Below the pieces are notes generated by a model. It made no database searches. It saw only the letters and a program-made list of their open reading frames with translations, and had not been told where the DNA came from. Positions 31,736 through 56,967 of a stretch of DNA of 64,000 nt are shown here, piece after piece (the first letter of the stretch is position 1; each line of letters opens with the position of its first letter). A program made the position numbers and the translations under genes. Source of the DNA: Blastocystis sp. Blastoise (Eukaryota > Protista > Bigyra: Opalinata); contig JBBPEB010000029.1 in NCBI GenBank assembly GCA_039096225.1, forward strand, positions 248,001-312,000. Direction: 5' to 3'.

Positions 31736-32647
31736 ATAATAATTCTTCCGTTCTTCGAACTGCAGAAGGGGGTATGCAAACCCCGCATAGAGTCTGCGCG
31801 ACGCGCGCAGCCATAAGCGGGGAAGACATCCCCCCTTTTTGTTCTCGACGGAAGAATTAATAACATTTCTGAAGTAAAATAACCATGGGAGTGTAGGGTA
31901 GTGTGTGTGTGTATTTATTTTTTCCCATGTTTATTTATTTTTAATTTATTTGTGTTCCGATTCCAACGTGAAACGTAAAGTGATCAAGGAGAAACTCATA
32001 GTAATCATAAAAGAAATAAAATACACAGTCCAACCCTCCCTTTACAGGGAATATTCATGGAAAATGGCTCCATCGTTGGTAAAGTGAGTAAAATAATCAC
32101 GGGAATACAGAAAGAAATACGAAAAGAAGCACAGAATGTGCTAAATAAACACACACCCCGACCCTCCCTTTATATAGAGAAAAGATGAAATGGATGGTTC
32201 TATCTAAAAAGAAATAATAAGAATAATCACGGGAATATATAAAAATAAAAATGTATGTATAGTGATCAATAAATAATATAAAAAGTCATGATAATCATAA
32301 AAAAATTTATATAAAAAGAGTAAAGTGATCAAGGTATGTATTTATAGTGGGTGAAAGAAAAGCTGGTGGTGGTGTGGTCTTGTAAAAAGATGTACCCACC
32401 ACCACGACTATAACGAGAGACTTTTGGAAACAAGGGTAACCGTTATGGAAATAGGATGCGTCATCGTGAATTGTCCAATCAAATTGCTTAAAATTGTAAA
32501 AATGAGGGATTTTGGAACACAAAAACACAATTATTATGGGGAAACTGGGGAAACTAAATTGTGTTCCAGTGGTTTTAGGTGGCGGCATGTATATCAATTT
32601 TCTAGAATATTCTAGAACATTCTCGAAACTTCTAGAACATTCGAGAA
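31736..32647 (+). repeat. Left terminal inverted repeat (912 bp)
   Basis: Reverse complement of 56056-56967 with about ten differences seen by eye (substitutions plus two 1-nt indels). Confidence 0.95.
32600..32647. promoter_or_regulatory. Heat-shock-element-like array (10 alternating nTTCn/nGAAn units)
   Basis: TTCtaGAAtaTTCtaGAAcaTTCtcGAAacTTCtaGAAcaTTCgaGAA at the inner TIR edge, upstream of ORF 32694. Confidence 0.65.
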
Positions 32648-32693
32648 TAATAAATTGTATTATTCGTTTTTTCTATTTTTTATACTATATATT

Positions 32694-32861
32694 ATGGATT
32701 CTCCAAAGCAATTTGCTCCAGATTATAAAGAAGGTACTTGGAAACCTTATGGAAATTTTGAAGTTGATGAATTAAGTGATAGTGATTCTGATGTGGATAC
32801 TATTCAAACTGAAAGTGAAGATGATTATGAAGATTATATAAAAAATTTTATTGATTTTTAA
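32694..32861 (+). CDS. Small acidic viral protein (55 aa), unknown function
   Basis: ATG at 32694 after the HSE array; followed by a TTGTTTAGTT 3' motif at 32889. Confidence 0.55.
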   Translation: MDSPKQFAPDYKEGTWKPYGNFEVDELSDSDSDVDTIQTESEDDYEDYIKNFIDF

Positions 32862-32935
32862 ATTAACGTTTATAAATAACAAAGCAAATTGTTTAGTTTT
32901 TAAAAATAATAATAAATAAAACAAATTAAAATTAA

Positions 32936-34426
32936 CTAATGTTTTCTACGTTTATTTCTTAATTTTTTATTTTTTGAAATACGTCTTTTTCTACGTAATC
33001 CATTACCTTCTTCGAGATCATAAAATACCTCACCATCATCTTCATCAAATGATTGAAATTCATCGTCTTCTTTTTTATTTCTTTTATTTTTATTTTCAAG
33101 AGTGACATTTTCTACTGGATTAGGAATCGGGGCTACAGGTGTAATATTTGGAGTGAATTTATTCGTGATTGCTTGAGACATTGGAACAGTATCAGGTAAA
33201 GGAACAGTAGGATCATTCATAAGAGGAATTAAATTTGGAGGATTTGAATCTTCTATAGTAATATTATGAATATTTTCTAGAGTTAGAGTATCAGGGGTAG
33301 ATGAAGGAGTTGATATAACATTATTATTTGTTTCTGTTGGATTTTCTGTTTGTGGTATTTCTTCTTCTGGATTTCTACCATACCACCAATCAGAAAAACT
33401 ATTAAATACGTTCTTTGTACCACTAACAATAGAGTTTGCAACTTTTTTAACACCATTAACAATTGGTGTTCCTACATTTGTTGCAGTATTAACAACTTTA
33501 TTAACAAATGTAGGGTTTTCTGCATAGGGAATATAATTTTTATGAAATGTTGTTGCTTGATTATCTAAAGATACCTTTTTGTTAAGTCTTTGTTCTTTAG
33601 TATCATTGCCTGACATATGAGCAAATCTAAAATAGTTATCAGCTAATATTTTATTTTTTTTCTTAGCTTCATTATCATCAGTTAATTTCCAATTATCATA
33701 TAAATTATTTCTATCACTTACAAGTTTTCCTTTAATATCATTGAATCCTTCTTGTGGATCAACATTAATATCTCTCCACCAATTCTTGAGATCTTTGAAT
33801 TTATTTGCACCATAATCAACAGCATTACTTATTCCATGAGTGATGTTATTAATACCTCCAGTTAATTTATCAGACACATTGTATACATCACTTACAGTGT
33901 GATAAATATTAGAAAATAAATTACCACCTCTAGAATATAAATAACCATCACGATCTCTTCTAGTAAAATCAATAGCACTATCAATTGTACGAGGATTTAA
34001 TAATCTAGAATATTTAGCATAATCAGACATATGATTTTGTTTCATATAAGGTAAGACATAATCATGAGCATAAATGAGTTTTCTTGTGAAATTCTTCGGA
34101 ATTCTACCATCAGGTAATAGCCCAGATCCTTCATCTATTGGTTCACTTTCTTCTGATTCTTCTAATGAACTTTGTATAATATCTTGTCTGGTTTCTGACA
34201 GATATGAATAGAATGGATTTGACGTTGCTCTATTAACCATATTACTTTCTATTCGTTTAACAGCAGCTAAAGAATTAGGAGCAATAGAATAATTAATTGG
34301 ATGACGTTCTTCTCCATCAGGAATAGATCCTGGAACAATATAATTTCGATATTCATGACCAGTAGCACGATGATTTACGCCTACTAATCCTTTATTCGAA
34401 ACATTTAAACGAGCACTTTGTATCAT
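32936..34426 (-). CDS. Putative virion core/membrane-active precursor protein with basic C-terminal tail
   Basis: 496 aa; GxG/RGG candidate cleavage sites (EGSGLL, SRGGNL, EGNGLRRKRR), amphipathic segments ending in WW, Arg/Lys-rich terminus. Confidence 0.55.
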   Translation of the reverse strand: MIQSARLNVSNKGLVGVNHRATGHEYRNYIVPGSIPDGEERHPINYSIAPNSLAAVKRIESNMVNRATSNPFYSYLSETRQDIIQSSLEESEESEPIDEGSGLLPDGRIPKNFTRKLIYAHDYVLPYMKQNHMSDYAKYSRLLNPRTIDSAIDFTRRDRDGYLYSRGGNLFSNIYHTVSDVYNVSDKLTGGINNITHGISNAVDYGANKFKDLKNWWRDINVDPQEGFNDIKGKLVSDRNNLYDNWKLTDDNEAKKKNKILADNYFRFAHMSGNDTKEQRLNKKVSLDNQATTFHKNYIPYAENPTFVNKVVNTATNVGTPIVNGVKKVANSIVSGTKNVFNSFSDWWYGRNPEEEIPQTENPTETNNNVISTPSSTPDTLTLENIHNITIEDSNPPNLIPLMNDPTVPLPDTVPMSQAITNKFTPNITPVAPIPNPVENVTLENKNKRNKKEDDEFQSFDEDDGEVFYDLEEGNGLRRKRRISKNKKLRNKRRKH

Positions 34427-34509
34427 TTTATAAAATAATTATGAATTTTAAAACAAAACAAAAAAAAAGAAATTATTTATATTATATAGTTAGTATATTA
34501 ATAGTATCA

Positions 34510-35301
34510 TTAATTATTATGAGTATTTTTTAAATAATCGTCAATATTCATTGATTTATCATTAGCTTCAACAAATAATGTTTTATTTTTGTAGAATATA
34601 TTATTATTTCCAAAAACATCACTATTGGTGCATTCAATAGGTCCATCAGTATACCATTTGAATTTATACTTTCCATAAGTGGCGTTATAATATGTTTTTT
34701 CGTCGGTATCTTGTTGTAAATTCATATCGAATTCAAATTTCTTTGGAGTATTATCATCTTCTTTATCTGGTTTCTTTTCAGTTTCAGGTTTAGTTTCAGG
34801 CTCTTTAGATGGTTTCTTTTCGGGTTCAGGTTTAGGTTCTGGTTTTGGTTGTTCTTCAGTGAAATTAGAATTCATGGATTCTGGTTGTGGTTTCACTGTA
34901 TAGTCTTCATTAGGATTTCTTACAGTATGAATAAGTTTTTCATATTGATAGTTATTAGGATTACTAGCATCATACCATATCTTACTTGTAGTAGGAATAC
35001 CATAATTCGTTTGCCATTGAGATAACATGGATGTATATCTATTTGTATCACCATTAGCTTTAGCTGAATTCATAGTAGCTATAAACATATCTTCAGGTGA
35101 TTGACCATGATTTCTTAATGCTTGAACTGCCATTGAGCTATACATAGATCCTTGTGCATTAGGATCATGTGCTAATGGTTGTACAGGTTGTTCATCTTGA
35201 CAAATATATGAATTGGGTAACCATGGATCCCAAGATTGTTTTTTCTGATTTCTTGATAAAATATCATAGAGAGTTACACTATCTCCTAAATTACTTTGCA
35301 T
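34510..35301 (-). CDS. Hypothetical viral protein with a Pro/Glu/Lys-rich linker
   Basis: 263-aa intact ORF with PKPEPKPEPEKKP repeats; no family recognised. Confidence 0.6.
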   Translation of the reverse strand: MQSNLGDSVTLYDILSRNQKKQSWDPWLPNSYICQDEQPVQPLAHDPNAQGSMYSSMAVQALRNHGQSPEDMFIATMNSAKANGDTNRYTSMLSQWQTNYGIPTTSKIWYDASNPNNYQYEKLIHTVRNPNEDYTVKPQPESMNSNFTEEQPKPEPKPEPEKKPSKEPETKPETEKKPDKEDDNTPKKFEFDMNLQQDTDEKTYYNATYGKYKFKWYTDGPIECTNSDVFGNNNIFYKNKTLFVEANDKSMNIDDYLKNTHNN

Positions 35302-35377: not shown

Positions 35378-36415
35378 TTAATTTAAATGGAATTTTTTTA
35401 AGAAGAATTGAACAAGATTAATAATTAAATTAGTAGTAGTATCAAAGGATGTAGAGTTGACAAGAGCACCACCGCAACGTTCAGCATTCTCTTTTGTAAC
35501 ACCACTTCCACTAGGATTTTTAAAATAGTTATCAGCAGTTTCTTTACGTTTCTTATCATCATCAGTAGTAATCATATTATAAGCGAAATCAATAGGGATA
35601 CCAAGAGAAGGATAATAGTATTTTAATGCATTCACTACAATAGGAACAATCGTTTTAATAGTTTTAATAGCAGTATTCGCAATAATAGAATGCTTTTGTT
35701 TTGGATCCATAGGATATTCTTTATCGATAACGACATTAACAATATCACGTACAGACACATGCTCATCATTTTTAGGTAATCGTTCTTTTATATCTTGTAA
35801 TTTCTTTCTATTAGACTTTATATTATTAGAACGAATAGCCTTCTTAGCAATAATTCTTATTTGAGGAGTTACGAATTTACTTGTTTTCTTTTCTTTTTCT
35901 CGGTGACTCCCATGTTCTTTACGATGTTTCTGATGCCTTCTATGTATACCTTGACCAAATATATCATCATAATTTTCATCTTCAAGATTTGCATTATTAT
36001 AATCTTTATCATCATCAGCCATCATTTTTCTTGTTATTCTCTTTGGTTGATAAGTAGCATCATCATTATATAATTCATCATCTCTATTAGCATCTTCAAT
36101 ATGTTCTTCAAATTGTCTTTTCTTGTCTTCTTTTGCTTTTTCTTGACGTTTATTTTCTTTTCTTTTCTGATAATAATTATATCCAGCAATAGCTCCTAAT
36201 GTACCTAAGGCAGGAATAGCATAAGAAACACCATTTTTAACACTATTCCACATAGCATCTTTAGCTTGTTGAGCAACAAGTTCTTCAAAACCAGTTCCTC
36301 CATATCTTACATAACGTTTATGATAAAGATCACGTCTATTTGATTTTGGTGGTGATCCTCCAAATAATCGTGGATCACAATTTTGTTTTAAATATCTTTT
36401 TGTAATTGAACTCAT
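35378..36415 (-). CDS. Putative basic core precursor protein with a hydrophobic segment
   Basis: 345 aa; LFGGS, RYGGTG, FGQGIHRRH, SGSGV and RCGGAL motifs; hydrophobic AIPALGTLGAIAGY stretch. Confidence 0.55.
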   Translation of the reverse strand: MSSITKRYLKQNCDPRLFGGSPPKSNRRDLYHKRYVRYGGTGFEELVAQQAKDAMWNSVKNGVSYAIPALGTLGAIAGYNYYQKRKENKRQEKAKEDKKRQFEEHIEDANRDDELYNDDATYQPKRITRKMMADDDKDYNNANLEDENYDDIFGQGIHRRHQKHRKEHGSHREKEKKTSKFVTPQIRIIAKKAIRSNNIKSNRKKLQDIKERLPKNDEHVSVRDIVNVVIDKEYPMDPKQKHSIIANTAIKTIKTIVPIVVNALKYYYPSLGIPIDFAYNMITTDDDKKRKETADNYFKNPSGSGVTKENAERCGGALVNSTSFDTTTNLIINLVQFFLKKFHLN

Positions 36416-36470: not shown

Positions 36471-37508
36471 TTAATGAAAAGATGGATAACCAGAATAATG
36501 TTTTTTATTTAAATAAGGATTGAAAATGCGTCGTTGACTATCTTGTATGATTTGATCTTGTATGATTTGTAAGATGGATTCTTTAGGTTTATCTTTTTCA
36601 TCTCGTTCAATACCTTTCAATGAGACTTCTTCTTCAATAGGTAAAAACTTCTTCATTTTCTTTTCATATGTAGATACATGTTCATTAGGACGTTTAATAC
36701 CACTACCTGATACTTCACCTTGTTCTTCTCGTTTCTCTTTTTCACTATCTTCTTCTGTCCATTTCCTTTTCTTTACCATCTTATATACATTCTGTTTACT
36801 ACCACAATCAGGATTAGTCCATATTGTTAAATCATCACTACCTTGTTTTAACATAAAGAATTGATGTGGATCATTCATTAATTCTTCATCTGTAAGAATT
36901 TCATTTAGATTTGATGGCATAATCTTTAATTTATCTGGTAAGAATCCAGGATCACGTTTTAAGATTTGACTATTAATAAAGAAATGAGATACTTGACTTA
37001 ATATAGATTGATTGGTAACATCTGTATGACTTTGAAGACATATAATAGCATTCTGTTTATAATGACGACCTTTAGATAATATAGATACAATCAATTGTTT
37101 GGTTTGTCTAGATAATGGATAGATATCATCCAATACAATAAAATTATGTTCTGGTAATTTATATGTATTGACTAATTCATCAACAGTCTTAATCTTTTTA
37201 AATTTATCATCTACAGAATCATACCATTTATAATCAATTCCAGCATGTTCACAAATATCTTGAAAGGATGTATAACATTCATTCTTATTGGATGCATCAG
37301 GACAAATTACTGTGACTTGTTTATATTTATTTTTAAGATCCATAGAACATAAGAGGTTCACAGTTAAGAAAGATTTTCCTGAGAATGTTCTTGCAATAAT
37401 CAATATGAATTTTGATTCATATGTTTTATGATGGGATTTTCCATATTTAAATTCTAAGACTCCACATCCTTTACGTGTTTCTTTTAATGGATTTATTTTA
37501 TTCACCAT
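36471..37508 (-). CDS. A32/FtsK-HerA family genome-packaging ATPase
   Basis: Walker A ILIIARTFSGKS, Walker B FIVLDD, A32-type KGRHYKQNAIICLQ. Confidence 0.9.
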   Translation of the reverse strand: MVNKINPLKETRKGCGVLEFKYGKSHHKTYESKFILIIARTFSGKSFLTVNLLCSMDLKNKYKQVTVICPDASNKNECYTSFQDICEHAGIDYKWYDSVDDKFKKIKTVDELVNTYKLPEHNFIVLDDIYPLSRQTKQLIVSILSKGRHYKQNAIICLQSHTDVTNQSILSQVSHFFINSQILKRDPGFLPDKLKIMPSNLNEILTDEELMNDPHQFFMLKQGSDDLTIWTNPDCGSKQNVYKMVKKRKWTEEDSEKEKREEQGEVSGSGIKRPNEHVSTYEKKMKKFLPIEEEVSLKGIERDEKDKPKESILQIIQDQIIQDSQRRIFNPYLNKKHYSGYPSFH

Positions 37509-37577: not shown

Positions 37578-38249
37578 TTAAGATGCAGTAAAGTATATAT
37601 AAAGATTTGTATTCGATAAATCAATTGGATTATTTAATTGATCATATACTTCCCATTGGATATCTGTATATTTACCATCAATACATGGAATAGATAAATC
37701 ACTTAAAGCAAATGTATTATCAAATCCTTGTTTAGCATATAAAGGAATAGAAATCAAATCATTATCTTTATTAATAATATCACAATACACACGTAACATA
37801 TAGATCTTATACCATGAAATATTTTTGGAAATATAATCATCATTATAGGTAATACATGATTCTCTTCTAAAATATTCGTCAGAAAATCCTAAATAATTAA
37901 AGAAAGTATAATTATTAAGACTTTTTCTGAATTCACTATACGTACCAAATACTTTCATATCTTTATCATAAAAAAATGCACTCGTTTTTCCAGATTCATA
38001 TATAGTCATAGTTTTACCTAATTCAATTAATTCTTCTAAGAATTCTTCCAGAGTATAATTACCAGCTGGAAATGTATGTACTGTTGCATTATTTTCAGTT
38101 ATTCTGAAAGATGGAATATTAATGATATCACTTGTATTCACTAATGTATTGATATGAGTAATATTTTTACCTACTAAATCCAAAGTATAATTGAATTGTT
38201 CATGACAGATTTGACTTGTAATTTTACTTAGATGAGATATTGATGTCAT
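37578..38249 (-). CDS. Minor capsid (penton, single jelly-roll) protein
   Basis: Pattern FPAGNYTLEEF..YLGFS..LRVYCDII..LISIPL..IQWEVYDQLNNPIDL, typical of Polinton/PLV minor capsid proteins; lies between the ATPase and MCP. Confidence 0.7.
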   Translation of the reverse strand: MTSISHLSKITSQICHEQFNYTLDLVGKNITHINTLVNTSDIINIPSFRITENNATVHTFPAGNYTLEEFLEELIELGKTMTIYESGKTSAFFYDKDMKVFGTYSEFRKSLNNYTFFNYLGFSDEYFRRESCITYNDDYISKNISWYKIYMLRVYCDIINKDNDLISIPLYAKQGFDNTFALSDLSIPCIDGKYTDIQWEVYDQLNNPIDLSNTNLYIYFTAS

Positions 38250-38345: not shown

Positions 38346-39569
38346 TTAATTGGTTGCACCATCTCTAACAAATTTAACAAATATAAAATGAGCATATAAA
38401 GTATAAGTACCACTAGTAATATTTCCACCATTATATTCAGTTAATAAGGAGATATTAACTTCACAACCACTACGAGTATTGACATCAACAACACTTGAAA
38501 TAGGGAATATATAAATAGGTTGTTCATACCACTTTTCACCGTTTAAAGGAGATTGAGGATGACTATTACATCTCCAAGTATTATAAAGCATAGCATTAGG
38601 AATAATTTGTGATGGATTAGTTGTTTTATATGTAGTAGGGAAGTCCGTCTTAGGTAAGATATTTTGACCACCAATTTGGAATTGACACATCTTCAATAAT
38701 TCAGTCTTAATAGGAATCATACTCTTCTCTTGAGTTGTAAAATATAGCATACAGTAATCAGGTACGAAAACAACACTTCTATTGGATAAGAATTGTTGTG
38801 GAGTTGGTTTACCTGCTGTTGAGAATGTTTCTGTATAAACAGGTGTAGTAAATGCAGATATTTGACAATTATTAGGAATACATTTAATTAAAGCACGTGG
38901 ATCATTACCAAAATTAATATCATAAATTTGTTGAAGATGAATATAAACACGATCAAAAGTTAATGCAGTGATTTTAGTCGTACCTGTAAATAGATTCTTT
39001 AAATAATTTGTAACGAATTGCATCTTCAAAGATTTTACTTTAATAGCACAATCAAATGTACCAAGACCAGTAATAAGAGATAAAGGAATAATAACTTGAG
39101 CTTTAGTAGAACTTTGCATTCCAGCAATACTACTTAATGTTGTATTATATAAGCATTCTGTCATACTATACATAGATTTATCAATTTCATCTTTACTTAA
39201 TTCTTTAATAGTAACAAATTTTCTTGCTTTACTGGATTCAATAGAAGATTCAGAATAATTAATAAGAATATCTTGACCCGTAGGAGATACAAACGTAAGA
39301 TCTGTAGTAATTTTATCAATAATACTATAGATATTAGAATGTTGTACAACAGAACTAGTTGTAGCTGCATTTGTTGTAATATTGAAATTCAGTTCTAAGA
39401 ATGAATTACTGAAATCAATAAAAGGACTATCGACTGAATTATATAAGAATTCAAATGGATAAGGTTGATTTAATAAATCTTGACTTGTAGAAACTAGAAT
39501 AGGAATTTGTACAGGTTTAATAGTTTGATTTGCCTTTGAAGGTAAGAATTGTCTTGGGAATCCTTCCAT
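38346..39569 (-). CDS. Major capsid protein 1 (double jelly-roll)
   Basis: 407 aa, beta-rich. N-terminal FEFLYNSVDSPFIDFSNSFLELNFNIT..NIYSIID resembles Polinton/PLV MCP starts; second-roll VPDYCMLYF..PIYIFPI. Confidence 0.7.
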   Translation of the reverse strand: MEGFPRQFLPSKANQTIKPVQIPILVSTSQDLLNQPYPFEFLYNSVDSPFIDFSNSFLELNFNITTNAATTSSVVQHSNIYSIIDKITTDLTFVSPTGQDILINYSESSIESSKARKFVTIKELSKDEIDKSMYSMTECLYNTTLSSIAGMQSSTKAQVIIPLSLITGLGTFDCAIKVKSLKMQFVTNYLKNLFTGTTKITALTFDRVYIHLQQIYDINFGNDPRALIKCIPNNCQISAFTTPVYTETFSTAGKPTPQQFLSNRSVVFVPDYCMLYFTTQEKSMIPIKTELLKMCQFQIGGQNILPKTDFPTTYKTTNPSQIIPNAMLYNTWRCNSHPQSPLNGEKWYEQPIYIFPISSVVDVNTRSGCEVNISLLTEYNGGNITSGTYTLYAHFIFVKFVRDGATN

Positions 39570-46356: not shown

Positions 46357-49193
46357 TAAACCACAAATACCAATAGCATTCCCCCCTTATAGAAATTTGA
46401 AGTATGTTTTCTATGAATATTCACAATATCTATAGAATTAAATGTATCTTTACTACTTAAACAACCAAATAAAGCATTTGTAAATTTATCTAAATCTTTC
46501 TTAATCGTAAATTGATTATTATTATTCACTTTCTTATAACTATTAAAAATATCTTCAATAGTAACTACATTCAAATAATAAGGATCTATAGTAATATGGT
46601 TATCAACAAAAGATTTCAAATCATATCCTTCTGTACTACGATCAAAGAATCGTTTCTTACATTCACTTATATGATATTCATTATCTAATTCATGCATATC
46701 TAATTGCATACTAGAATAGAAATAATTACTTACTAGATAACTAAAGATAATAGAACGATTCTGATAGAATTTATCGGATAGGGTATAATCCATTTCATAA
46801 TGATTGGGTTTCAATCTCTTTTCTACTGTCTGTTTACGTTTAGGTAAATTATGATCTACATAATCTTCATATAAATTAGCATTACCAGGAGGGAAATAAC
46901 GACAACATGATGGTAAGAAACAAACTCTTCTTTCAATAGGACCAGCATTCACAGCAGTAGGTTGAATATTACTTGTCATAAATAAAGTACCCGTGAAATG
47001 AACTTTTGTAAATATATTACTGAATAATTTACGAGCACTAGCACCTTCTTTCTTTTCTGCTATTTCTTTAAATACTTTAGAAGAGAATGGATTAAATGTT
47101 TTCTTTCTACCAGTAACATCTTCTTCTATTAATTCATTCATATAATACATTGTTTTATTAGACATATCTACAATCTTAGGAGCTATAGATGTTTCTTCTA
47201 AATTATCTGGATTTACTATAATACATTGATTACTACCTACAATACGAGAAATTAAATCAGTTGTTATTGTTTTACCATTACTACCTGTACTACCATATAA
47301 TATATAAGAAACTGTTTTCTGAGTATTGACATAGAAAGCAGTGGTTAAGATACGTAACATAATACTTTCATATTTCTTATCGAATTCACAATATCTTGCA
47401 ATATGTTGTTCAAATAATTGGATAATATCTTTCTGTTCATTATTTATATTCCAACTTACATTAAATTCAGTATCAATTAATAAATCTTCAAACACCATAT
47501 CTTCTTTATGATATGGTTGGATATAATATTGTCTAGGATCTTCTTCTGTAGATTCTTTTGGATATAAATAACCAAGTTGTGTATAGATAACACGTTCTTT
47601 ATGAACCATATAAGTATCTAAATATTCTTTATAAGATTTACCATAAGTCTTCAAATAACGATTCAACCATTCTTTATAATGATATTCATTAGTAACAGAA
47701 GCAGACATTATTTTATCAACTATTTTTTGATGTTGTTCATTCTCTTTGGAATATAATCTTGATAATTTGAATTTCTCTACAATCGATTTCATAAATGTAG
47801 TTATTTTGGTTTCAAAGAAATTAATATCATAATTATTCTTACAACGTCTTAAGATATTATATTCATCAAATGTATATAAGATAAAATTATCTTTATCTAA
47901 TATAATGGAAACAATTTCATTAAATTCTAATAATTGAAATAACATAACTAATGTTTGTGAATCTACAAGATTAAAGGATTGAATACATTCTAAAATAGAC
48001 ATAAATATGAAATCATTATCATCATCTTTATTAAATAATTTATTATCCATTAATATCTTCAAAATATAATTATTCGATAAATGAGTAGGATCAACTTGTA
48101 TATGATTCCATGTAGATTCAATTACATCATCACTTCGATCATGACCATAACGTAATGAATAATTTTTAAATAATTCTAATCCTCTTGTTGTATTACAAAT
48201 CTGTTTTGCTGCACAACATAATTTATACCAAGTATTATGAGATTCAAAATAATTCATATCTTCAATAGAACCAATCAATAATAAATATCGTTCCAATAAA
48301 GCTTCTTTAGATGCTGTAGTATCCAATATAGTATCTGTAGAAATCAACATAGGAATATCTTTAATATCTTGTATAGAACATAATATAGTACGTGAACAAT
48401 TATTTAATCTTGCATAATAACGTTTATAACGTGAATATTGTTTTAATTTATAAAAGATAATAGGATTAATAATATCACTTATAATATCATCTTCATTCTT
48501 ATAATTCAATAATGTTTTGAAATAATAATGTTCATCAATTTCATCATCTATTTTCTTCCATGATTTATTGGTATATTCTTCATATAATTTATAAGTAGAT
48601 GGAGAATTATCTTTACTACAACCAAGAAACATACAACCATTATTCTTTCTGGGTTTACCAATAACATTATAATCAATGAATTCTTTTATATCTAAATTAT
48701 ATGTTTTACATAAATCAACCAATTTTGTATTCAGAATCATACTATTATATAAGAAAAATAAATAATCACCATTTACAAACCAATTTGTATATATGTGAAT
48801 TCCCCATGAATAATGTATTTCATTATGAACTGTCTTCTTATTCACTTCTTTCTTTGTATACACAAGCGAAATAAATTCTTGATTATAATAATGAATACAA
48901 TGATTACACATTTCTTCTATAAATTCATGAATAAAAGAATCTGTTAGAAAAGAAAAATCATTTGATATTTGGTGATAATCTAAATCAAACCATAATCTTC
49001 TATAATTAGTTGATGTATTACAAGGAGTACAATCAATATAATGTAGTAATTCTTTTTGATGTTGGTAATTAGTAAATAGACTTTTATAAAATGGTAAAGG
49101 ATTTGGTATAATAATTTCACTATGATTATCTTTTGAGTTATCATGATTAAAGGAACCAAAAGTATAAACAAAATGAATTTGTGAATTTTCCAT
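46356..49193 (-). CDS. AEP primase-PriCT-2-SF3 (D5-like) helicase
   Basis: RLWFDLD and WGIHIY (AEP motifs), HNTWYKLCCAAK..LFKNYS..TWNHI (PriCT-2), Walker A YGSTGSNGKT, Walker B YYMNE, LFMTSN, ERRVCFLP. First ATG at 49193. Confidence 0.9.
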   Translation of the reverse strand: MENSQIHFVYTFGSFNHDNSKDNHSEIIIPNPLPFYKSLFTNYQHQKELLHYIDCTPCNTSTNYRRLWFDLDYHQISNDFSFLTDSFIHEFIEEMCNHCIHYYNQEFISLVYTKKEVNKKTVHNEIHYSWGIHIYTNWFVNGDYLFFLYNSMILNTKLVDLCKTYNLDIKEFIDYNVIGKPRKNNGCMFLGCSKDNSPSTYKLYEEYTNKSWKKIDDEIDEHYYFKTLLNYKNEDDIISDIINPIIFYKLKQYSRYKRYYARLNNCSRTILCSIQDIKDIPMLISTDTILDTTASKEALLERYLLLIGSIEDMNYFESHNTWYKLCCAAKQICNTTRGLELFKNYSLRYGHDRSDDVIESTWNHIQVDPTHLSNNYILKILMDNKLFNKDDDNDFIFMSILECIQSFNLVDSQTLVMLFQLLEFNEIVSIILDKDNFILYTFDEYNILRRCKNNYDINFFETKITTFMKSIVEKFKLSRLYSKENEQHQKIVDKIMSASVTNEYHYKEWLNRYLKTYGKSYKEYLDTYMVHKERVIYTQLGYLYPKESTEEDPRQYYIQPYHKEDMVFEDLLIDTEFNVSWNINNEQKDIIQLFEQHIARYCEFDKKYESIMLRILTTAFYVNTQKTVSYILYGSTGSNGKTITTDLISRIVGSNQCIIVNPDNLEETSIAPKIVDMSNKTMYYMNELIEEDVTGRKKTFNPFSSKVFKEIAEKKEGASARKLFSNIFTKVHFTGTLFMTSNIQPTAVNAGPIERRVCFLPSCCRYFPPGNANLYEDYVDHNLPKRKQTVEKRLKPNHYEMDYTLSDKFYQNRSIIFSYLVSNYFYSSMQLDMHELDNEYHISECKKRFFDRSTEGYDLKSFVDNHITIDPYYLNVVTIEDIFNSYKKVNNNNQFTIKKDLDKFTNALFGCLSSKDTFNSIDIVNIHRKHTSNFYKGGMLLVFVV

Positions 49194-49279: not shown

Positions 49280-49399
49280 GAAGCTTCTAGAACATTCTAG
49301 AACATTCAGGAACATTCTATAATAGTAAATATTACTTTATATTTTTAAATGTTCTAGAACCTTCGAGAACCTTCTAGAACCTTCTAGAACCTTCTAGAA
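49280..49399. promoter_or_regulatory. Two heat-shock-element-like arrays upstream of the primase-helicase
   Basis: GAAgcTTCtaGAAcaTTCtaGAAcaTTCagGAAcaTTC (49280-49317) and TTCtaGAAccTTCgaGAAccTTCtaGAAccTTCtaGAAccTTCtaGAA (49352-49399). Confidence 0.65.
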
Positions 49400-49508: not shown

Positions 49509-50132
49509 TTAAATTTCAATTGGTTCTTGACTATTAATATATGTACATGAATGAGGCCATCCATTTTTATCATATAAAATACCATCCCAGAAATACATTT
49601 GTTTTGAAGGATCTCTTTTAATCTTGTTAATACTCTTAGCATGAACAACTTCATAAGTATAAACTTTACCTTTTTCATCATAAAGGAATCCATCTTCCAT
49701 ATGGAATTTCATAATATCAAAATCATCATCTTTAGAATTCGAATGTTCTTTAGAATCTTCAGAACATAAAATAGTAGTTCTATCACTTTCTAAAAGATCT
49801 TCAGTATTGATAATATCTTGAATATCTTGTTCTTCATTAAGTTGTTGAGTATAAATATCAGCAGCGAATTCTTCATAATCTTCAAGACCTTTAATAACCG
49901 CGTTTATACGTTTTAAAGCTGATCTATAGTTTTCGACTTCGAAAGAAGCAAGACGTTCTTTAGATTTTGCAATACCCAATAGATTCTTTTCTCTATTCAA
50001 TTGAGACTGATGTAAATCAATATCACGAAGAACATTCTTATGAACTTCAACAGCCTTCTTAGAATTCTTAAGAAGTTCCATACGAACAGTTTGAAGACAT
50101 TTACGGGAATCAGCAGAAAGATTAAATTGCAT
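49509..50132 (-). CDS. Hypothetical coiled-coil viral protein
   Basis: ATG at 50132, heptad-rich N-terminal half, duplicated DG(F/I)LYD(E/K)(K/N)G motif; HSE-like element at 50244-50261 upstream. Confidence 0.6.
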   Translation of the reverse strand: MQFNLSADSRKCLQTVRMELLKNSKKAVEVHKNVLRDIDLHQSQLNREKNLLGIAKSKERLASFEVENYRSALKRINAVIKGLEDYEEFAADIYTQQLNEEQDIQDIINTEDLLESDRTTILCSEDSKEHSNSKDDDFDIMKFHMEDGFLYDEKGKVYTYEVVHAKSINKIKRDPSKQMYFWDGILYDKNGWPHSCTYINSQEPIEI

Positions 50133-50530
50133 TATAATCGCGAATATCGTTACAGAGAGAAAATTTGTATTTATCAAAATGAAATAAATAATACATTTAA
50201 ATGGAATATTAAATATTCTAGGAGACAGTGTAGAATCTCTATGGAATGTTCTAGAAGGTTCATTTGATTGGCTAATTTTGTCGACTTAGCATTTTTTATT
50301 TGTGTTTCAATGACGAGTATAGTTGGCATCTGTAATCTGATTGGATAAAAAAATTAGTAAAACACAATTAGACGATGACGACGACTTGTCATACAAAATA
50401 AGCTATTCTATTGGTTTATTTTCCAGCTGGAAGCAATAGGCTTTTGTTAGCAACTGAAATGAAGAACTGTACACTAAAAATAGTATATTTAATATATTGT
50501 ATAAAAATACTTTTGAAGGTTTAAATAATC

Positions 50531-51058
50531 ATGGAAATTCCTGATAGTCTTTCTGCCAGTTTATCCCCTTTCGGTCAAGCCATGATATCCCCCTTGTTGA
50601 ATCCATTTGAAAATAGTGTTTCTGAAAATCCTATGGCTTTACCCAATGATAATGATTTCTGTTTTAATTCGCGTGACGAAATCATATTTGAAGATCCACC
50701 TCAAGAAATTCATCCAATCAATGATGTTTATGTATCTAAAAATCCAGATAGATATCATTCGGTTAACAATCAACCAATACAATTTCAAGATCAAGTAAAT
50801 ACAAATCCTAATAAGCAAGCATTATTATTTACAAATGAGGAGTTAACAAATATATCCAGTCAATTCGAATCTTTATTTCAAACTATTGAAACAGCTGATA
50901 ATATATTAAATAGTATTTATTGTACTGTTGATCATTTAAAAACAAAGATTGAAAGTCAGAAACAAGATTTGAAACAGATTCATGATGATTCTAAAGAAAT
51001 TGTTTCATTATTATCCGAATATTCTATTCCTTCTATGTCTGAAATATTTGATCATTAA
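50531..51058 (+). CDS. Hypothetical viral protein (acidic N-terminus, C-terminal coiled coil)
   Basis: 175-aa ORF followed by TTGTTTTGTT at 51081. Confidence 0.6.
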   Translation: MEIPDSLSASLSPFGQAMISPLLNPFENSVSENPMALPNDNDFCFNSRDEIIFEDPPQEIHPINDVYVSKNPDRYHSVNNQPIQFQDQVNTNPNKQALLFTNEELTNISSQFESLFQTIETADNILNSIYCTVDHLKTKIESQKQDLKQIHDDSKEIVSLLSEYSIPSMSEIFDH

Positions 51059-51144: not shown

Positions 51145-51253
51145 AGAATTCTTGAATGGTCTAATGGATCTATTAAAGAAATATGTAACCACAGTATCAT
51201 GGTTCGATTCCGTTAAAATGTTTCCATTAGATTATTCAAGTGTTCTTTTTTTT
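51145..51253 (+). ncRNA. Putative RNA polymerase III small RNA (VA/vault-like architecture)
   Basis: A box TGGTCTAATGG 51157-51167, B box GGTTCGATTCC 51201-51211, long terminal stem with G:U pairs, T8 terminator 51246-51253. Confidence 0.65.
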
Positions 51254-51299
51254 CTAGAACCTTCTCGAACATTCTAGAACCTTCTCGAACCTTCTGGAA
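51252..51299. promoter_or_regulatory. Heat-shock-element-like array upstream of the SSB-like gene
   Basis: TTCtaGAAccTTCtcGAAcaTTCtaGAAccTTCtcGAAccTTCtgGAA (10 units). Confidence 0.65.
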
Positions 51300-51376: not shown

Positions 51377-51970
51377 ATGTCTACAACTGAATTTAAAAAA
51401 CCTACTATTCTTGATACTTCTAACTTTAATTTACAATGGGATGACACCAAAGAAAATGCTGTTCTTTTAAATAATAATCATCGTGTATGTATTTCTACTG
51501 ATGCTACACCATGTTTATTTGGTTATATTGTTACACGTGATAAATGGACTTTATTAACAATTGAAGATGATAATCAATTATTCTTAACTGCTTATAAAGA
51601 ACTTTATCGTAAATTATGTGAATTATGTCCTGATGGTGATATTGTTAATTTTGTACGTATGGATAATGGTAAATATAAGATTACAATTAAAGTACCTATT
51701 AATGCATCGAAGAATGTTACTATTGATATTACTGATAAAAGAGATAAGAAGATTAATATCGGTAAAGATCCTAAGTTAACTTACGAAGAAATACGTGAAA
51801 AGTATATTCCACCAAATACGTTATGTAAAGTATTATTTACAATACATGGTATTCATCGTTATAATAACAAGTATTATATTGGTTTATATGCTCGTTCTAT
51901 TAAAGTCATCGATAAATCTACGAAGAATACTAATAGTAATGATACTATTATTGATTTAACTAATTTATAA
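51377..51970 (+). CDS. Probable OB-fold ssDNA-binding protein (T7 gp2.5 / NCLDV DUF2738-like)
   Basis: TPCLFGY, KYKITIKVP and IPPNTLCKVLFTIHGIHRYNNKYYIGLYARSIKV resemble the viral SSB pattern; recognised by eye only. Confidence 0.5.
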   Translation: MSTTEFKKPTILDTSNFNLQWDDTKENAVLLNNNHRVCISTDATPCLFGYIVTRDKWTLLTIEDDNQLFLTAYKELYRKLCELCPDGDIVNFVRMDNGKYKITIKVPINASKNVTIDITDKRDKKINIGKDPKLTYEEIREKYIPPNTLCKVLFTIHGIHRYNNKYYIGLYARSIKVIDKSTKNTNSNDTIIDLTNL

Positions 51971-52044: not shown

Positions 52045-53673
52045 ATGCAAAGTTGTATATTAGGAATGCCAAGTCCTGGTACTTTTGGTATGAATTTAAT
52101 TTCAACTGGAAAAGAATATAGGCGATATAATACACAGCCATTACATAAAATGGATCAATATAATCCAATATTTCATGAAATAGGTCCAAATTCATCTATG
52201 CCTGTAACTACTTTAGAAAGTAAAGAAATACATGATGGTAAAGAAGATGATTATGTAGATCGTTCTAAAACATTTGGTAAAGATGCTGTTCCACAAGGAA
52301 ATGGTGCATTAATTCGTGCTAGAGCAGCAGGTAAAGGTGTAATGAAAGCAGCTGGTCCAGAAGAAGATAAAATAGATGGTGAAGATCGTCAATATAAAGT
52401 ATTAAATCCATGTAAACCAAGACGTAAATCTGGTAGAGGTATTATTCCAAATAAATCAGAAATCAATAAATTAGAAAATAATCAAGGTTCTGGTATTGGT
52501 GATGCAATTAAAAATAAAGTAAAAGATATGTATCAACGAAATGTATTAGATATAAGAGATGCTATTGTAGATAAAAAAGCTAATAGAAAAGCTCGTGATG
52601 CATTAGCTATTTTAGCTCAATATGTTGGTGATGGTCATCATGATCTTGATGATGAATTCAAAAGATTCTATGATCATAAAATAAAACGTGGTGGAAAGAT
52701 TCCTATATCTGTTGCTTCAGCAATTATGAATGCAATTAAAAATAAGAAAATGATTAAGAATCCAAAATTAAGAAGAATGTTAAGACCTTCAATTATACCA
52801 AAATATATAGATTTAGATTCAGCTCAAAGTGGTGATGGTATATTAAGAGTTAAAAGAGGTGGTGGATTCTGGGATGGAGTAATGAATTATGCACCAGCTC
52901 TTTTAGGTGTAGTTGATAAAGGTATGGATTCTTTTGCTAAAGGTAGAAAAGCTTATTATGATACACATTTGGCACAACAATCAAGTGAATTAAATGATAT
53001 GGAATTTGAAATGGAAAAATTAAAACGTCAACAAGCATTAAATGAAATGAAAAAACAAATAGGTTCAGGAAATACTATAAATAAAATGTTTGAAGGATAT
53101 TATGATGTAGCTGATGAAATGCAAGATGCTCTTAACGAAGATGATAGACTACATCCACAACCCGTTGTTCAACCTCCACCACCTCCACAACAACAAGTTG
53201 TTAGACCTCCTCAACCTCAACCTCCTCAACCTTATAAACCTATGTCTCGTGATGAACAAAGTTATCCTTATAAGATTTATGGTTTCCCTCAAAATGATAA
53301 GGAGAAAGTCGATAGAAAATGGAAAGAAGATGAAAGGGATAAACGAATAGCTGCAAGAAGAGCTAAACGTAGAGGATATGGTGGTCGAGTTAAATTAAGT
53401 AAAGAAGAATTCTTAGAACGAATGAGAAGAGGAAAAGAAGCTAAAAAGAAAAGAGGTGGTGAATTGCCTCCATTGGTAACAGCTTATACAGATTTTGTAA
53501 TACCTGCACAAGTAGAACAAAGGAAACGTAAAGTAGCTAAAAATGATTTAAAACAATTACAAATTATAAAACAGAAAATGGATAATAATGAAATATTAGA
53601 TAGAGGTGAACAAATGTTTTGGAAAGAAAAGAAGTATATGTTATCAAAAAACTCAGGGGAGGGGATCTGGTAA
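52045..53673 (+). CDS. Core polyprotein precursor with many GxG/RGG maturation sites
   Basis: 542 aa, basic and Pro-rich segments; QGNGAL, AGKGVM, SGRGII, QGSGIG, KRGGKI, SGDGIL, KRGGGFW, IGSGNT, GYGGRV, KRGGEL. Confidence 0.6.
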   Translation: MQSCILGMPSPGTFGMNLISTGKEYRRYNTQPLHKMDQYNPIFHEIGPNSSMPVTTLESKEIHDGKEDDYVDRSKTFGKDAVPQGNGALIRARAAGKGVMKAAGPEEDKIDGEDRQYKVLNPCKPRRKSGRGIIPNKSEINKLENNQGSGIGDAIKNKVKDMYQRNVLDIRDAIVDKKANRKARDALAILAQYVGDGHHDLDDEFKRFYDHKIKRGGKIPISVASAIMNAIKNKKMIKNPKLRRMLRPSIIPKYIDLDSAQSGDGILRVKRGGGFWDGVMNYAPALLGVVDKGMDSFAKGRKAYYDTHLAQQSSELNDMEFEMEKLKRQQALNEMKKQIGSGNTINKMFEGYYDVADEMQDALNEDDRLHPQPVVQPPPPPQQQVVRPPQPQPPQPYKPMSRDEQSYPYKIYGFPQNDKEKVDRKWKEDERDKRIAARRAKRRGYGGRVKLSKEEFLERMRRGKEAKKKRGGELPPLVTAYTDFVIPAQVEQRKRKVAKNDLKQLQIIKQKMDNNEILDRGEQMFWKEKKYMLSKNSGEGIW

Positions 53674-54239
53674 AGAGTAAAGATGAAAAACTTATTCAAA
53701 ATTCAATGAATTGCGATAATCCTATTATATCTGATAAAACTCGTCATGTTACTCCTAGATCCCCTGATAATTTTAAACAAACTCTATTTCAATATTGTAA
53801 TATACCCAATTCTTTAATATCTCAATTATATAATTATGCTTATTTAAATAAACCTACCTCTTCTGTTGCTTGTGATCGTGCTGAAAATGTTATGAAACAA
53901 TTAAATAAAACGAATTCTCAATCTTATAATTATTATAATAGTTATGATGATTTTGAACAAAATATAGATCAAGATCAAACTAAATTTAATATGATCTTTC
54001 ATGAAAGTCCTAGTGATCCTTATAATGGTCATTTTGAAGCTGTTATTTATAATGGTAATAAAAATATAGAACACTATTCATCATTAGGAAATAAACCTAC
54101 TTTTTCAAAATCATTTATTCAAAATCATAATATTCAATATAATCCTATTCAACACCAAAAAACTACAAGTAATGCAAATGGTTGCTTTTATTATTCTTTA
54201 CTTTATTTACTTTCTAATGGAAATCTTATGCCTTGTTAA
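53619..54239 (+). CDS. Adenain/Ulp1-like cysteine maturation protease (-1 frame relative to the core polyprotein; first ATG 53706)
   Basis: GHFEAV (His), EHYSSLG (variant of the usual FDS(F/L)G), oxyanion QHQ and GCFYYSLLYL (Cys). Confidence 0.7.
   Translation: MERKEVYVIKKLRGGDLVKSKDEKLIQNSMNCDNPIISDKTRHVTPRSPDNFKQTLFQYCNIPNSLISQLYNYAYLNKPTSSVACDRAENVMKQLNKTNSQSYNYYNSYDDFEQNIDQDQTKFNMIFHESPSDPYNGHFEAVIYNGNKNIEHYSSLGNKPTFSKSFIQNHNIQYNPIQHQKTTSNANGCFYYSLLYLLSNGNLMPC
53646..53765 (+). promoter_or_regulatory. Candidate -1 programmed ribosomal frameshift signal
   Basis: In-frame slippery heptamer A AAA AAC (53646-53652), 7-nt spacer, stem AGGGGATCTGG/CTAGATCCCCT (53660-53670/53755-53765) extended by GAGTAA/TTACTC. 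Confidence 0.65.
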
Positions 54240-54325
54240 AACCTTCTAGAATATTCTAGAATCTCTAATTTATTATATTAATATTTTGTATAATTAATTT
54301 GTTTTGTTTATTATTTAATACTATA

Positions 54326-54481
54326 ATGACAAAGAAACGATTTGGCAATTACTACTTAGATCGTAGTGCAGAAACTTTAGAGAATGTAAATGAAATACTG
54401 TCAGTTATTGAAATTGTTCTTATTATTATATATATTTTACTTTACTTCTATATGTCCAAGAAACGTTCTAGAACATTCTAG
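54326..54481 (+). CDS. Small single-pass membrane protein (51 aa)
   Basis: ILSVIEIVLIIIYILLYFYM hydrophobic run followed by basic residues; HSE-like element at 54244-54261 upstream, 3' motif at 54552. Confidence 0.45.
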   Translation: MTKKRFGNYYLDRSAETLENVNEILSVIEIVLIIIYILLYFYMSKKRSRTF

Positions 54482-54583
54482 AACATTCATTTTGAACTGG
54501 CTCTATTTGTAGAATCTTTAATTTATTATATTAGTGTTTTATATAATTAATTTGTTTTGTTTAATCATTGGTTAATTTTAATA

Positions 54584-54958
54584 ATGAACAAGAAATATCT
54601 TAGTTATTCTTATTTTTGTCGTGTGATGAAGAATCTAAAAGAAGAAGGAATTAAATCCAAAAAGAATGAAATAGCGAATCTTTTAGAACAATTTTTAAAT
54701 AACAATAACAACAAAAATCTTAGTGATTTACAACTAAGTTATTGTAGAAACATGTTACTTTATATAGATGATCCTGTGATTCATCAACGTCTTGAAATGC
54801 TATTGGATAAACAATATATGAAGAATGAGAATCAATATCAAGAGGATAAGAATCTTATTCAACCCAATAATATGTTTATGCCTACTATGAAAAGTAATCA
54901 ACAACAAAATCAATACCAAAATAATAATAATAATCTATCTTTCTTACCTTTTAATTAA
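54584..54958 (+). CDS. Hypothetical viral protein (Asn/Gln-rich C-terminus)
   Basis: 124-aa ORF from ATG 54584; HSE-like element at 54466-54488 upstream, TTGTTTAGTT at 54982. Confidence 0.55.
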   Translation: MNKKYLSYSYFCRVMKNLKEEGIKSKKNEIANLLEQFLNNNNNKNLSDLQLSYCRNMLLYIDDPVIHQRLEMLLDKQYMKNENQYQEDKNLIQPNNMFMPTMKSNQQQNQYQNNNNNLSFLPFN

Positions 54959-55031
54959 TTTTTATATCCTTTTATTACTAGTTGTTTAGTTATATTCAAA
55001 ATTAAAACAAAACAAACATAAAAACATAAAA

Positions 55032-55967
55032 TTATTCAATTAATTTTTTAAATAAATTATTATTTTCTAAAGATACATAAGAATTAATATGTGTATAATC
55101 ATTATGACATAAAGCAGAAGCAGAATTTTCTATATCTTGGAATGTATTGGTTGTAGTTGTAGCATATAATTTTCTTAATGCATTAATGGTTAATTTTGGA
55201 TGGATTTGTTTTAAATGCTTATTCACAAACCAATCAAATGCTTTAGTAGTAAATCCAGTTCGTACAGAAGATTCAAATATAAATTTACGATTTGGATTTC
55301 TTTTTAAGAGTAATTCTAGATCTTCAATCAATTCTTTTGGTGCATCTAATTGAATTGTAGAGTATTTACCAGCAGTTTTATAATCATTCAATAGAATAGA
55401 ACCAGTGTGTTTCTCTTTATCATAAACAATATAATTCTTATGAATAGCTGGATCAATAGTATCTTCTGGAGTTAGAATGAATAATTGAGCATAATCAGCA
55501 CGAGCAGGAGGAAGATAGGAGTAAAAATCTAATATTAATCGTAATGGATTATAATTTTCTAATTTATCGTGATATTCATGTAAATATGGAGTCGTAATAC
55601 CATCTTTAATAAGATCTTGAATCAAAGTGCGTTTCTTATTATCCAGATATTTTTCATACATAGAATTGATAATCACATAAAATTCACACCATTTATTTAA
55701 AATACCTTCTTTATTTAATGAAGAAACATTACGTATAATAAATAATATCAATTCACATAACGATTTCATTGGACTAATTTTGATTTTACGTTCATTTACC
55801 ATATAATCCATGAATGAATAAGGATTCTTTAAGAATTCTGAGAACTTTTTAAATGGTAATGGGAAAATATATAAATTGAAATAATTGGTTAAACGTTTTT
55901 TCCAAATATCAGAATAATTTGAATTCTGTATAACCAAAAGATACTTGTCATAATTTGTATTTTTCAT
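55032..55967 (-). CDS. Tyrosine recombinase 2 (integrase- or protelomerase-like)
   Basis: PPARADY (R), LNDYKTAGKY (K), NALRKLYA (R..Y), LCHNDYTHINSY (H..Y at +9); adjacent to the right TIR. Confidence 0.8.
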   Translation of the reverse strand: MKNTNYDKYLLVIQNSNYSDIWKKRLTNYFNLYIFPLPFKKFSEFLKNPYSFMDYMVNERKIKISPMKSLCELILFIIRNVSSLNKEGILNKWCEFYVIINSMYEKYLDNKKRTLIQDLIKDGITTPYLHEYHDKLENYNPLRLILDFYSYLPPARADYAQLFILTPEDTIDPAIHKNYIVYDKEKHTGSILLNDYKTAGKYSTIQLDAPKELIEDLELLLKRNPNRKFIFESSVRTGFTTKAFDWFVNKHLKQIHPKLTINALRKLYATTTTNTFQDIENSASALCHNDYTHINSYVSLENNNLFKKLIE

Positions 55968-56055
55968 TGATTTTCTCAAGTAGAATCTTTAAAACTTCTA
56001 TTTTCAAAAGAATAATACATAAGAAAATCAAAATAAAATATCTAAGATTCTCATG

Positions 56056-56967
56056 TTCTCGAATGTTCTAGAAGTTTCGAGAATGTTCTAGAATATTCTA
56101 GAAAATTGATATACATCCCGCCACCTAAAACCACTGGAACACAATTAGTTTCCCCAGTTTCCCCAATATAATTGTGTTTTTGTGTTCCGAAATCCCTCAT
56201 TTTTACAATTTTAAGCAATTTGATTGGACAATTCACGATGACGCATCCTATTTCCATAACGGTCACCCTTGTTTCCAAAAGTCTCTCGTTATAGTCGTGG
56301 TGGTGGGTACATCTTTTTACAAGACCACACCACCACCAGCTTTTCTTTCACCCACTATAAATACATACCTTGATCACTTTACTCTTTTTTATATAAATTT
56401 TTTATGATTATCATGACTTTTTATATTATTTATTGATCACTATACATACATTTTTATTTTTATATATTCCCGTGATTATTTTTATTATTTCTTTTTAGAT
56501 AGAACCATCCATTTCATCTTTTCTCTATATAAAGGGAGGGTCGGGGTGTGTGTTTATTTAGCACATTCTGTGCTTCTTTTCGTATTTCTTTCTGTATTCC
56601 CGTGATTATTTTACTCACTTTACCAACGATGGAGTCATTTTCCATGAATATTCCCTGTAAAGGGGAGGGTTGGACTGTGTATTTTATTTCTTTTATGATT
56701 ACTATGAGTTTCTCCTTGATCACTTTACGTTTCACGTTGGAATCGGAACACAAATAAATTAAAAATAAATAAACATGGGAAAAAATAAATACACACACAC
56801 ACTACCCTACACTCCCATGGTTATTTTACTTCAGAAATGTTATTAATTCTTCCGTCGAGAACAAAAAAGGGGGATGTCTTCCCCGCTTATGGCTGCGCGC
56901 GTCGCGCAGACTCTATGCGGGGTTTGCATACCCCCTTCTGCAGTTCGAAGAACGGAAGAATTATTAT
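56056..56967 (-). repeat. Right terminal inverted repeat (912 bp)
   Basis: Reverse complement of 31736-32647; its HSE-like array (56056-56103) lies upstream of tyrosine recombinase 2. Confidence 0.95.

Follow-up and report, generated by a model that had tools for sequence, protein, structure and literature searches.

How is an endogenous virus woken up in its host? For most endogenous polinton-like viruses (PLVs) the route is open, and the cases in the literature that we covered need a giant virus. The question is raised again by a 25,232-bp element of the gut protist Blastocystis sp. Blastoise, which lies at positions 31736–56967 of a 64,000-nucleotide stretch of contig JBBPEB010000029.1 (this whole stretch is called the window, and all coordinates refer to it) and which an original prediction had described as an intact PLV with an unusual gene set. 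Judged by its sequence, the element resembles the PLVs with a tyrosine recombinase (YR) and an AEP-SF3 replicase and fails the features of Polintons. A gene set of this kind, AEP-SF3 with YR and multiple major capsid proteins (MCPs), was already described for PLVs, so it can no longer be called unusual; endogenous PLVs, AEP-SF3 replicases and multiple MCPs are all known (PMC10120064; 10.64898/2026.06.19.733378). The unusual part, as far as sequence can tell, is the cis-regulatory design, which that prediction did not contain. Arrays of the heat-shock-element (HSE) type lie ahead of putative recombinase and replication genes, which makes host stress, and not a helper giant virus, the likely switch, and on balance we lean towards a temperate nuclear PLV that would be induced through the host heat-shock factor (HSF).

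The sequence TTCnnGAAnnTTCnnGAA matched 20 times, every time within the element, and had no match in 100 shuffles. Alternating nGAAn arrays of 4–10 units were found eight times in the element and not once in the 38.8 kb of flank, and each array ends 47–159 nt before an ATG. They precede 7 of the 20 open reading frames (ORFs) of the element. A 10-unit array stands at the inner end of each terminal inverted repeat (TIR), at 32600–32647, which is 47 nt before the 55-aa acidic ORF55 (32694–32861, +), and at 56056–56103, which is 89 nt before YR2, a 311-aa putative tyrosine recombinase (55032–55967, −). Two arrays of 8 and 10 units (49280–49399) are located 87 and 159 nt before the ATG of the primase-helicase, a 4-unit array (50244–50261) lies 112 nt upstream of a 207-aa ORF (49509–50132, −), and a 10-unit array (51252–51299) lies 78 nt before a putative single-stranded-DNA-binding protein (SSB). 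The last two arrays, with four units at 54244–54261 and five at 54466–54488, end 65 nt before a 51-aa ORF with a hydrophobic stretch (54326–54481, +) and 96 nt before a 124-aa ORF (54584–54958, +). No array was found ahead of the capsid, ATPase, core-like, protease or YR1 genes.

Mismatches within the arrays, counted with a seed that favoured no position, fell on 2 of 144 GAA/TTC positions versus 26 of 96 spacer positions, and in both TTCnnGAA and GAAnnTTC the spacer is always 2 nt, through as many as 10 units. We also considered the arrays as a plain minisatellite, which was ruled out by the position-specific mismatches and the placement. The canonical HSE is NGAANNTTCNNGAAN, and the arrays fit that pattern (PMC6927752). 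The mark of an HSE, three or more nGAAn pentamers in alternating orientation at 5-nt spacing ahead of a gene, is present in the sequence. Heat shock factor binding protein 1 acts as a brake on HSF. The corresponding entry IPR009643 counts 0 in all eight Blastocystis isolates and 1–2 in Cafeteria and Proteromonas (PMC10690189, supplement 7), and three tortoise Blastocystis isolates list 2–3 HSF-domain proteins each in the supplement of the same paper. Of 2.9 million IMG/VR contigs, 4 hold arrays of eight units. L001 proved to be a simple 10-mer repeat lying in AT-rich DNA with few genes; L004 has the same sequence, L003 matches it around the array, and L002 is GC-rich. As a separate observation, three ATTGG (reverse CCAAT) boxes at 50267–50414 lie upstream of a 175-aa acidic ORF (50531–51058, +) with weak coiled-coil-type matches, the only early-region ORF with no array within 150 nt.

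The other end of the genes also points to the host. The motif TGTTT(T/A)GTT was found 18–77 nt past the stop codon in 17 of the 20 ORFs, ORF55 among them, and without exception it was on the sense strand; an earlier run on 19 ORFs gave 16, against a null mean of 0.12. Its length exceeds by one base that of the Blastocystis polyadenylation motif TGTTTGTT, which it resembles (PMC4159000, PMC6395660). Around the element, TGTTTTGTT was seen after a DDE_Tnp_4 ORF (17220, −), after a MULE ORF (60968, −) and at one guessed host gene end (17095, +), and this could be the form that the Blastocystis 3' signal takes in this clade. From the motif, a 3'-end signal of the Blastocystis type would seem to work in an AT-rich clade where it was reported as non-enriched.

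The extent of the element is given by its TIRs. The left TIR (31736–32647, +) and the right TIR (56056–56967, −) are 912 bp each and 98.6% identical in blastn, in line with the approximately 99% claimed before; global alignment of the pair gave 12 differing columns, and the blastn edges were clean. No 5–6-bp target-site duplication (TSD) was found for the 18 end choices tested; end choices −6 to +8 gave at most 2 bp, and the sole longer flank match was 4 bp at end choice +9, which is already inside the TIR. The flanks 31727–31735 and 56968–56971, when joined, read CAAA-T-TTTG, a short palindrome which may be a preferred target, seen at one site only. The first approximately 125 nt of each TIR fold as a single bulged stem, an imperfect terminal palindrome (31740–31859 on the left, with the same in the right TIR). 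The left hairpin reached −34.2 kcal/mol (z −7.1), none of 200 shuffles was equally good, and Rfam gave no above-threshold match in the left TIR. The GC content of the element is 26.8%, versus 20.5% in the host genes to the left.

Between the TIRs, 18 single-exon ORFs of 124–945 aa occupy 20,490 of 23,408 unique bases, and two small ones (55 and 51 aa) bring the total to 20, which agrees with the approximately 20 intron-less ORFs noted earlier. The host in the flanks is intron-rich, as had been said: its genes are broken into short exons. The size range of 15–30 kb with TIRs, a predicted double jelly-roll (DJR) MCP, an A32-type ATPase and a helicase-primase replicase in place of protein-primed PolB (pPolB) are all PLV features found here. 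For a YR in place of the RVE integrase, the catalytic pattern was found in two ORFs, with a best match of E 0.084. The features of Polintons, Mavericks and adintoviruses, namely pPolB, RVE integrase and a 5–6-bp TSD, were absent in our scans. In the 18 ORFs, pPolB had no Pfam match at E 0.1 and no PHROG match at E 0.05, the long ORFs being assigned otherwise, and no RVE integrase was found in the same Pfam/PHROG scans, which also gave no DNA or RNA polymerase match in the element's ORFs.

The AEP primase-SF3 helicase (46195–49193, −) was confirmed by profile matches and motifs: PHROG 1156 at E 2e-9, TIGR01613 at E ~3e-6 in relatives, and both AEP and SF3 motifs. The element is not intact and uninterrupted as first described. 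This gene changes frame at a G-run near 46385, with an ORF at 46356–49193 and the remainder at 46195–46395 in another frame, so that the last ~62 codons are out of frame relative to a 1000-aa form. Among the 15 records listed, 12 have 1000 aa, and P0171 and P0175 skip the same stretch; one of these two may be this copy's own annotation. The frame change is likely an assembly slip at the homopolymer. A programmed frameshift was rejected here, since the G-run does not form a canonical heptamer and most of the listed records, 12 of 15, have the full length.

Two tyrosine recombinases had been predicted, and the catalytic pattern was indeed present in two ORFs, but the best family match was Pfam Phage_integrase at E 0.084, for YR2 only. 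YR1, a 598-aa putative recombinase in the structural block (44351–46147, +), shows the R-K-xxR-H-Y pattern with a C-terminal GHGL and no HSE array, and its BLASTP comparison with YR2 was not significant (E 0.056). F-box matches of the YR alignment in the PDB (E 4e-4) were dismissed as a short chance match. The 197-aa putative SSB (51377–51970, +), another of the predicted genes, kept its label by a sequence pattern and found no relevant database match. Altogether, PDB sequence searches of the element's proteins gave nothing relevant, and tblastn of the ATPase, YR1, YR2 and the protease against 50,697 phage records gave nothing.

In the morphogenesis module, MCP1 (38346–39569, −) was modelled as a double jelly-roll with pLDDT 74 from 88 aligned sequences, compared with 29 for the single-sequence fold. 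Foldseek against the PDB placed the Sputnik MCP on top (E 2.3e-11), and VIA-align gave Z 15–17 against the faustovirus, PBCV-1, mavirus, Sputnik and ASFV capsids, compared with less than 6 for unrelated folds. For a virophage-type MCP the picture is mixed: Sputnik is first in Foldseek, faustovirus and PBCV-1 are near-equal in VIA Z at 7–14% identity, and there is no Pfam match. The best match in BFVD was 'MELD virus sp.' A0A8S5L5M3 (TM 0.65, 15% identity). MCP2 (39740–41212, −) is a paralogue of MCP1 (hhalign E 1.2e-39), its Atlas matches are clusters with Capsid_N or Sputnik_MCP families, and the two proteins formed separate clades among 26 selected rows. The two predicted MCPs thus held, with the DJR fold borne out for MCP1 by structure prediction. 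The packaging ATPase of A32/FtsK type (36471–37508, −) was also confirmed, by Walker A/B, an A32-type motif, GRH and PHROG 2666 (E 1.2e-10).

For two penton proteins and a protease, also claimed before, the motif patterns were present and no significant database match was obtained. The penton candidates are a 223-aa protein (37578–38249, −) with a PxGxY motif and Atlas feature matches of 0.97–0.98, mostly to viral clusters, and an 827-aa putative vertex (penton-like) protein (41308–43791, +) with a variable insert at aa ~100–500. For the single jelly-roll penton expected of a PLV, PDB and Pfam searches gave no match to the candidates, which show PxGxY motifs and Atlas look-alikes, and the two did not align with each other (probability 2.6%). 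The putative adenain-type protease (53706–54239, +) carries the motifs GHF, YSSLG and Q..S..GC in a non-canonical register, and no database match was found for it in the PDB sequence search or in the tblastn search. Three proteins may belong to the core, a function inferred for each: a 496-aa ORF (32936–34426, −) with 3 GxG/GG motifs, a 345-aa basic ORF (35378–36415, −; pI 9.5, 6 GxG/GG motifs) and a 542-aa basic putative polyprotein (52045–53673, +; pI 9.6, 12 GxG/GG motifs, no 3' motif). A 263-aa ORF with a PEPK repeat and no family match (34510–35301, −) and a 140-aa ORF (43861–44283, +) complete the set.

The protease lies in a reading frame that is −1 to the 542-aa ORF and overlaps it; this frame is open from 53610, 32 codons ahead of the protease ATG. 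A −1 programmed ribosomal frameshift needs an in-frame X_XXY_YYZ heptamer, a 5–9-nt spacer, a 3' structure and an open −1 frame. The candidate signal at 53646–53765 (+) shows these in its sequence: of 29 in-frame slippery heptamers, A_AAA_AAC near the end of the 542-aa ORF alone had the −1 frame open for at least 60 codons, and a long-range stem (~105 nt) starts 7 nt after it. Fold windows, picked after the stem was seen, gave z −2.9 and −3.8, and −2.1 for a 136-nt window, while two neighbouring control windows gave 0.6 and 1.2. This candidate frameshift would fuse the core-like protein to the protease in Gag-Pro style. Retroviral Gag-Pro uses a −1 frameshift of the A_AAA_AAC type. Both have the slippery heptamer, the 7-nt spacer and a stem, with the structural polyprotein in frame 0 and the protease in frame −1; the differences are that here we have a dsDNA virus, an adenain-like protease and a long-range stem.

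The element is not alone in its genome. Named proteins 93–99% identical to its own belong to Blastocystis sp. Blastoise, and their accessions form at least 22 blocks, 19 with at least four genes and 3 with a single gene, all in the gene order of the window. Copies were counted from named protein records with at most 15 sequences and 4 accessions per list, so the count is a lower bound; it points to about 20 near-identical collinear copies. The mean identity among listed variants was 99.4% for the helicase and 99.2% for YR2 (10 variants), 98.7% for the ATPase (11 variants) and for YR1, and 96.4%, 95.9% and 92.9% for MCP1, MCP2 and the vertex protein. Capsid, ATPase and vertex genes are full length in most listed copies. 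Within the vertex protein, identity among copies was 0.76–0.92 in the inserted region and 0.95–1.00 at both ends; by eye, metagenomic relatives look mosaic at aa ~100–500, as if attachment domains were shuffled. That the element is a divergent PLV which spread recently, in a protist with AT-rich DNA, is therefore supported by the 19 collinear blocks with replication and recombination proteins 98.7–99.4% identical, by the DJR capsid and by the lack of pPolB, RVE and TSD. Three further subfamilies were seen in named records of the same organism, with MCPs 48–51% identical and 1, 3 and 3 records (P0077, P0079, P0080, P0161 and clusters), and two of the three share a 39%-identical primase-helicase.

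More distant relatives came from metagenomes. The MCP1 search gave 87 matches, 83 of them at 55–63% identity and nearly all from ENA or Logan. Linkage was read from equal size in bp: MCP1, helicase and vertex protein are linked on 23,710- and 23,956-bp contigs, and MCP1, MCP2 and helicase on a 26,864-bp contig. Among the metagenomic matches listed, no contig exceeds 27.5 kb, and the structural genes of the relatives lie on 23.7–27.5-kb contigs. No related locus was found in IMG/VR, JGI metagenomes or GTDB, and the lineage appears isolated: of 1.84 billion representatives, only 11 proteins are picked up by the MCP profile.

In the flank of this copy, a host ATE1 (arginyl-tRNA-protein transferase) gene with many short exons lies at 12367–14599, with ~1.4 kb between its ATE_N and ATE_C pieces. 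Immediately to the left of the virus, 22924–31432 is a large foldback whose 2,948-bp arms are 100% complementary, with (TATTATA)n tracts, ~488-bp internal repeats and no long real ORF; a second copy of its end, at 27301, adjoins a host gene fragment. Transposase ORFs of the DDE_Tnp_4 (17245–18456, −; E 3e-11), hAT-like (20406–22726, +; weak match) and MULE (61102–63031, −; E 2e-10) types occur on the flanks, and the virus is therefore located in a transposon-rich island.

With these data, the life cycle of an HSF-induced temperate PLV could be sketched as follows. Under stress, host HSF would bind the arrays and host Pol II would transcribe an early set of YR2, primase-helicase, putative SSB and small regulators. 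YR2 would excise the element, the terminal palindromes would form hairpin ends or origins, and the primase-helicase would copy these with a host polymerase. An early product would then switch on the array-less late block of capsids, ATPase, core proteins and YR1, and the −1 frameshift would yield a little core-protease fusion that cuts the core proteins at GxG/GG sites. On arrival in another cell, YR1, which is likely packaged, would insert the genome and leave no long TSD. A wider claim, which we put forward only tentatively, is that this is a helper-independent temperate lineage, a eukaryotic prophage with a stress switch, in which HSF would fire the excision and replication genes, the host 3' signal would close the transcripts, a YR would resolve the hairpin ends and the protease would be frameshifted, and that the relatives on 24–27-kb contigs are of the same kind.

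Several points weigh against the HSF reading. The arrays were seen in one copy only, and since their units share a common origin, the core-versus-spacer comparison has an overstated P value. The human-subtype 3' motif is reported as not enriched in tortoise isolates (PMC10690189), and a variant of our 3' motif stands at only 3 of 8 guessed flank gene ends. The YR, penton, protease and SSB labels are motif patterns with no significant matches, and the protease Cys falls outside the adenain register. For the frameshift, the 69- and 96-nt windows, which do not contain the 3' arm, gave no fold signal (z 0.8 and 0.3), and an assembly slip at the A-run is possible because only two records share the 542-aa stop. 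TCTA, which is the core of the CroV late promoter, also occurs in the arrays, and a AAAATTGA comes directly after the SSB array. Moreover, PgVV, Tetraselmis PLVs and EMALEs all need a giant virus, and a D5 primase with no polymerase of its own is taken as helper dependence in Tetraselmis PLVs (10.1101/2025.10.09.676808). The TCTA in the arrays and the helper dependence of these systems speak for a helper-dependent provirophage, for which a giant virus of Blastocystis would provide transcription and replication and the arrays would be its promoter or sense infection stress. The absence of any DNA or RNA polymerase match, the Sputnik and mavirus MCPs among the top folds and hexagonal particles of at most 200 nm once seen in Blastocystis (PMC12835684) fit it too. 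We still regard it as the less probable explanation. Giant-virus promoters upstream of genes, as in virophages, did not emerge for the two motifs scored: the giant-virus promoter motif AAAATTGA occurred 18 times in the window versus 17.4 expected and upstream of 1 of 20 genes (P 0.29), TCTA lay upstream of 2 of 13 array-less genes versus a null of 5.5, and in the arrays the TA of TCTA varies while GAA/TTC stay fixed. The 3' motif is of host type, and an egovirus survey, in the portion covered, gave no gene-flux signal for Blastocystis (10.1101/2024.03.23.586382). HSF could also be activated by the stress of an infection, in which case the two readings would overlap.

The arrays might instead serve a dimeric DNA-binding protein encoded by the virus, as its operators or origin iterons, which would give autoregulation with no link to host stress. 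TTCnnGAA is palindromic and is found at both TIR inner ends and before several small ORFs, but the strict 2-nt spacer in both orientations over up to 10 units is the HSF grid and no DNA-binding domain was found in any ORF scanned, so we think this unlikely. More improbable still is a capsid-bearing transposon that spreads within the genome only and makes no virions, its arrays boosting copying under stress in an ONSEN-like way: about 20 copies in one genome, the transposon-rich island and the frameshift in this copy would suit it, and against it stand the full-length capsid, ATPase and vertex genes of most listed copies, variation concentrated in the vertex protein insert, and relatives that retain the same structural genes on 23.7–27.5-kb contigs. 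An assembly artefact joining free virus to host contigs is hardly credible given ~20 loci with distinct protein variants on many long contigs and the clean TIR edges. We thus keep host HSF as the favoured switch, and the element offers a direct and cheap test of a route other than giant-virus infection, as its host is culturable. Knowledge of Blastocystis viruses is largely old microscopy plus one metagenomic report (PMC12835684; PMC8502044), and a virus-derived inducible promoter and recombinase could serve as genetic tools for Blastocystis, for which a transfection system has been published (PMC6395660).

In the literature that we covered, mostly open-access, neither this element nor the presence of HSE arrays in PLVs or virophages was described. 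The main text of 10.64898/2026.06.19.733378 on PLV groups does not mention 'Blastocystis', the main text of the genome paper has 'virus' and 'viral' once each, neither on such elements, and a 2023 survey gives 10 Blastocystis assemblies with a blank count cell versus 285 for Proteromonas, the column being read as MCP hits. A control design wired to the host is apparently undescribed, and bioRxiv supplements may hold this lineage.

The closest known systems are PgVV-14T/Gezel and Tetraselmis TsV-S2x, which share with the element TIRs, a DJR MCP, an A32-type ATPase, an SF3 helicase fused to a primase/polymerase, a YR that is putative in our element, and early control signals before the recombinase and replicase genes. 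In PgVV, a giant-virus early promoter precedes Yrec and TVpol (10.1101/2022.07.28.501842), and Tetraselmis PLVs wake upon giant-virus infection (10.1101/2025.10.09.676808). Unlike these, with their giant-virus promoter or dependence, our element has HSE-type arrays and a host-type 3' motif, as well as two putative YRs and two MCPs. The Blastocystis hominis MELD virus (PMC8502044) comes from the same host genus, and MELD viruses have a mid-size TIR-type genome, but it carries PolB and an integrase, neither of which was found here in the Pfam/PHROG scans, and the supplement of that report gave no match. Mavirus and the EMALEs of Cafeteria likewise live in a stramenopile, integrate in many copies (up to ~2% of the genome) and have a similar MCP fold (PMC8547959); they differ in their rve integrase, mostly 3–5-bp TSDs and, in type 4, CroV-type TCTA promoters, none of which were found here (PMC8547959). 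Finally, the heat-activated ONSEN retrotransposon and HSE-bearing Helitrons are also mobile elements with host heat-shock elements (PMC13602373; PMC6927752), but they are not capsid-coding dsDNA viruses, whereas in our element the arrays mark one gene class.

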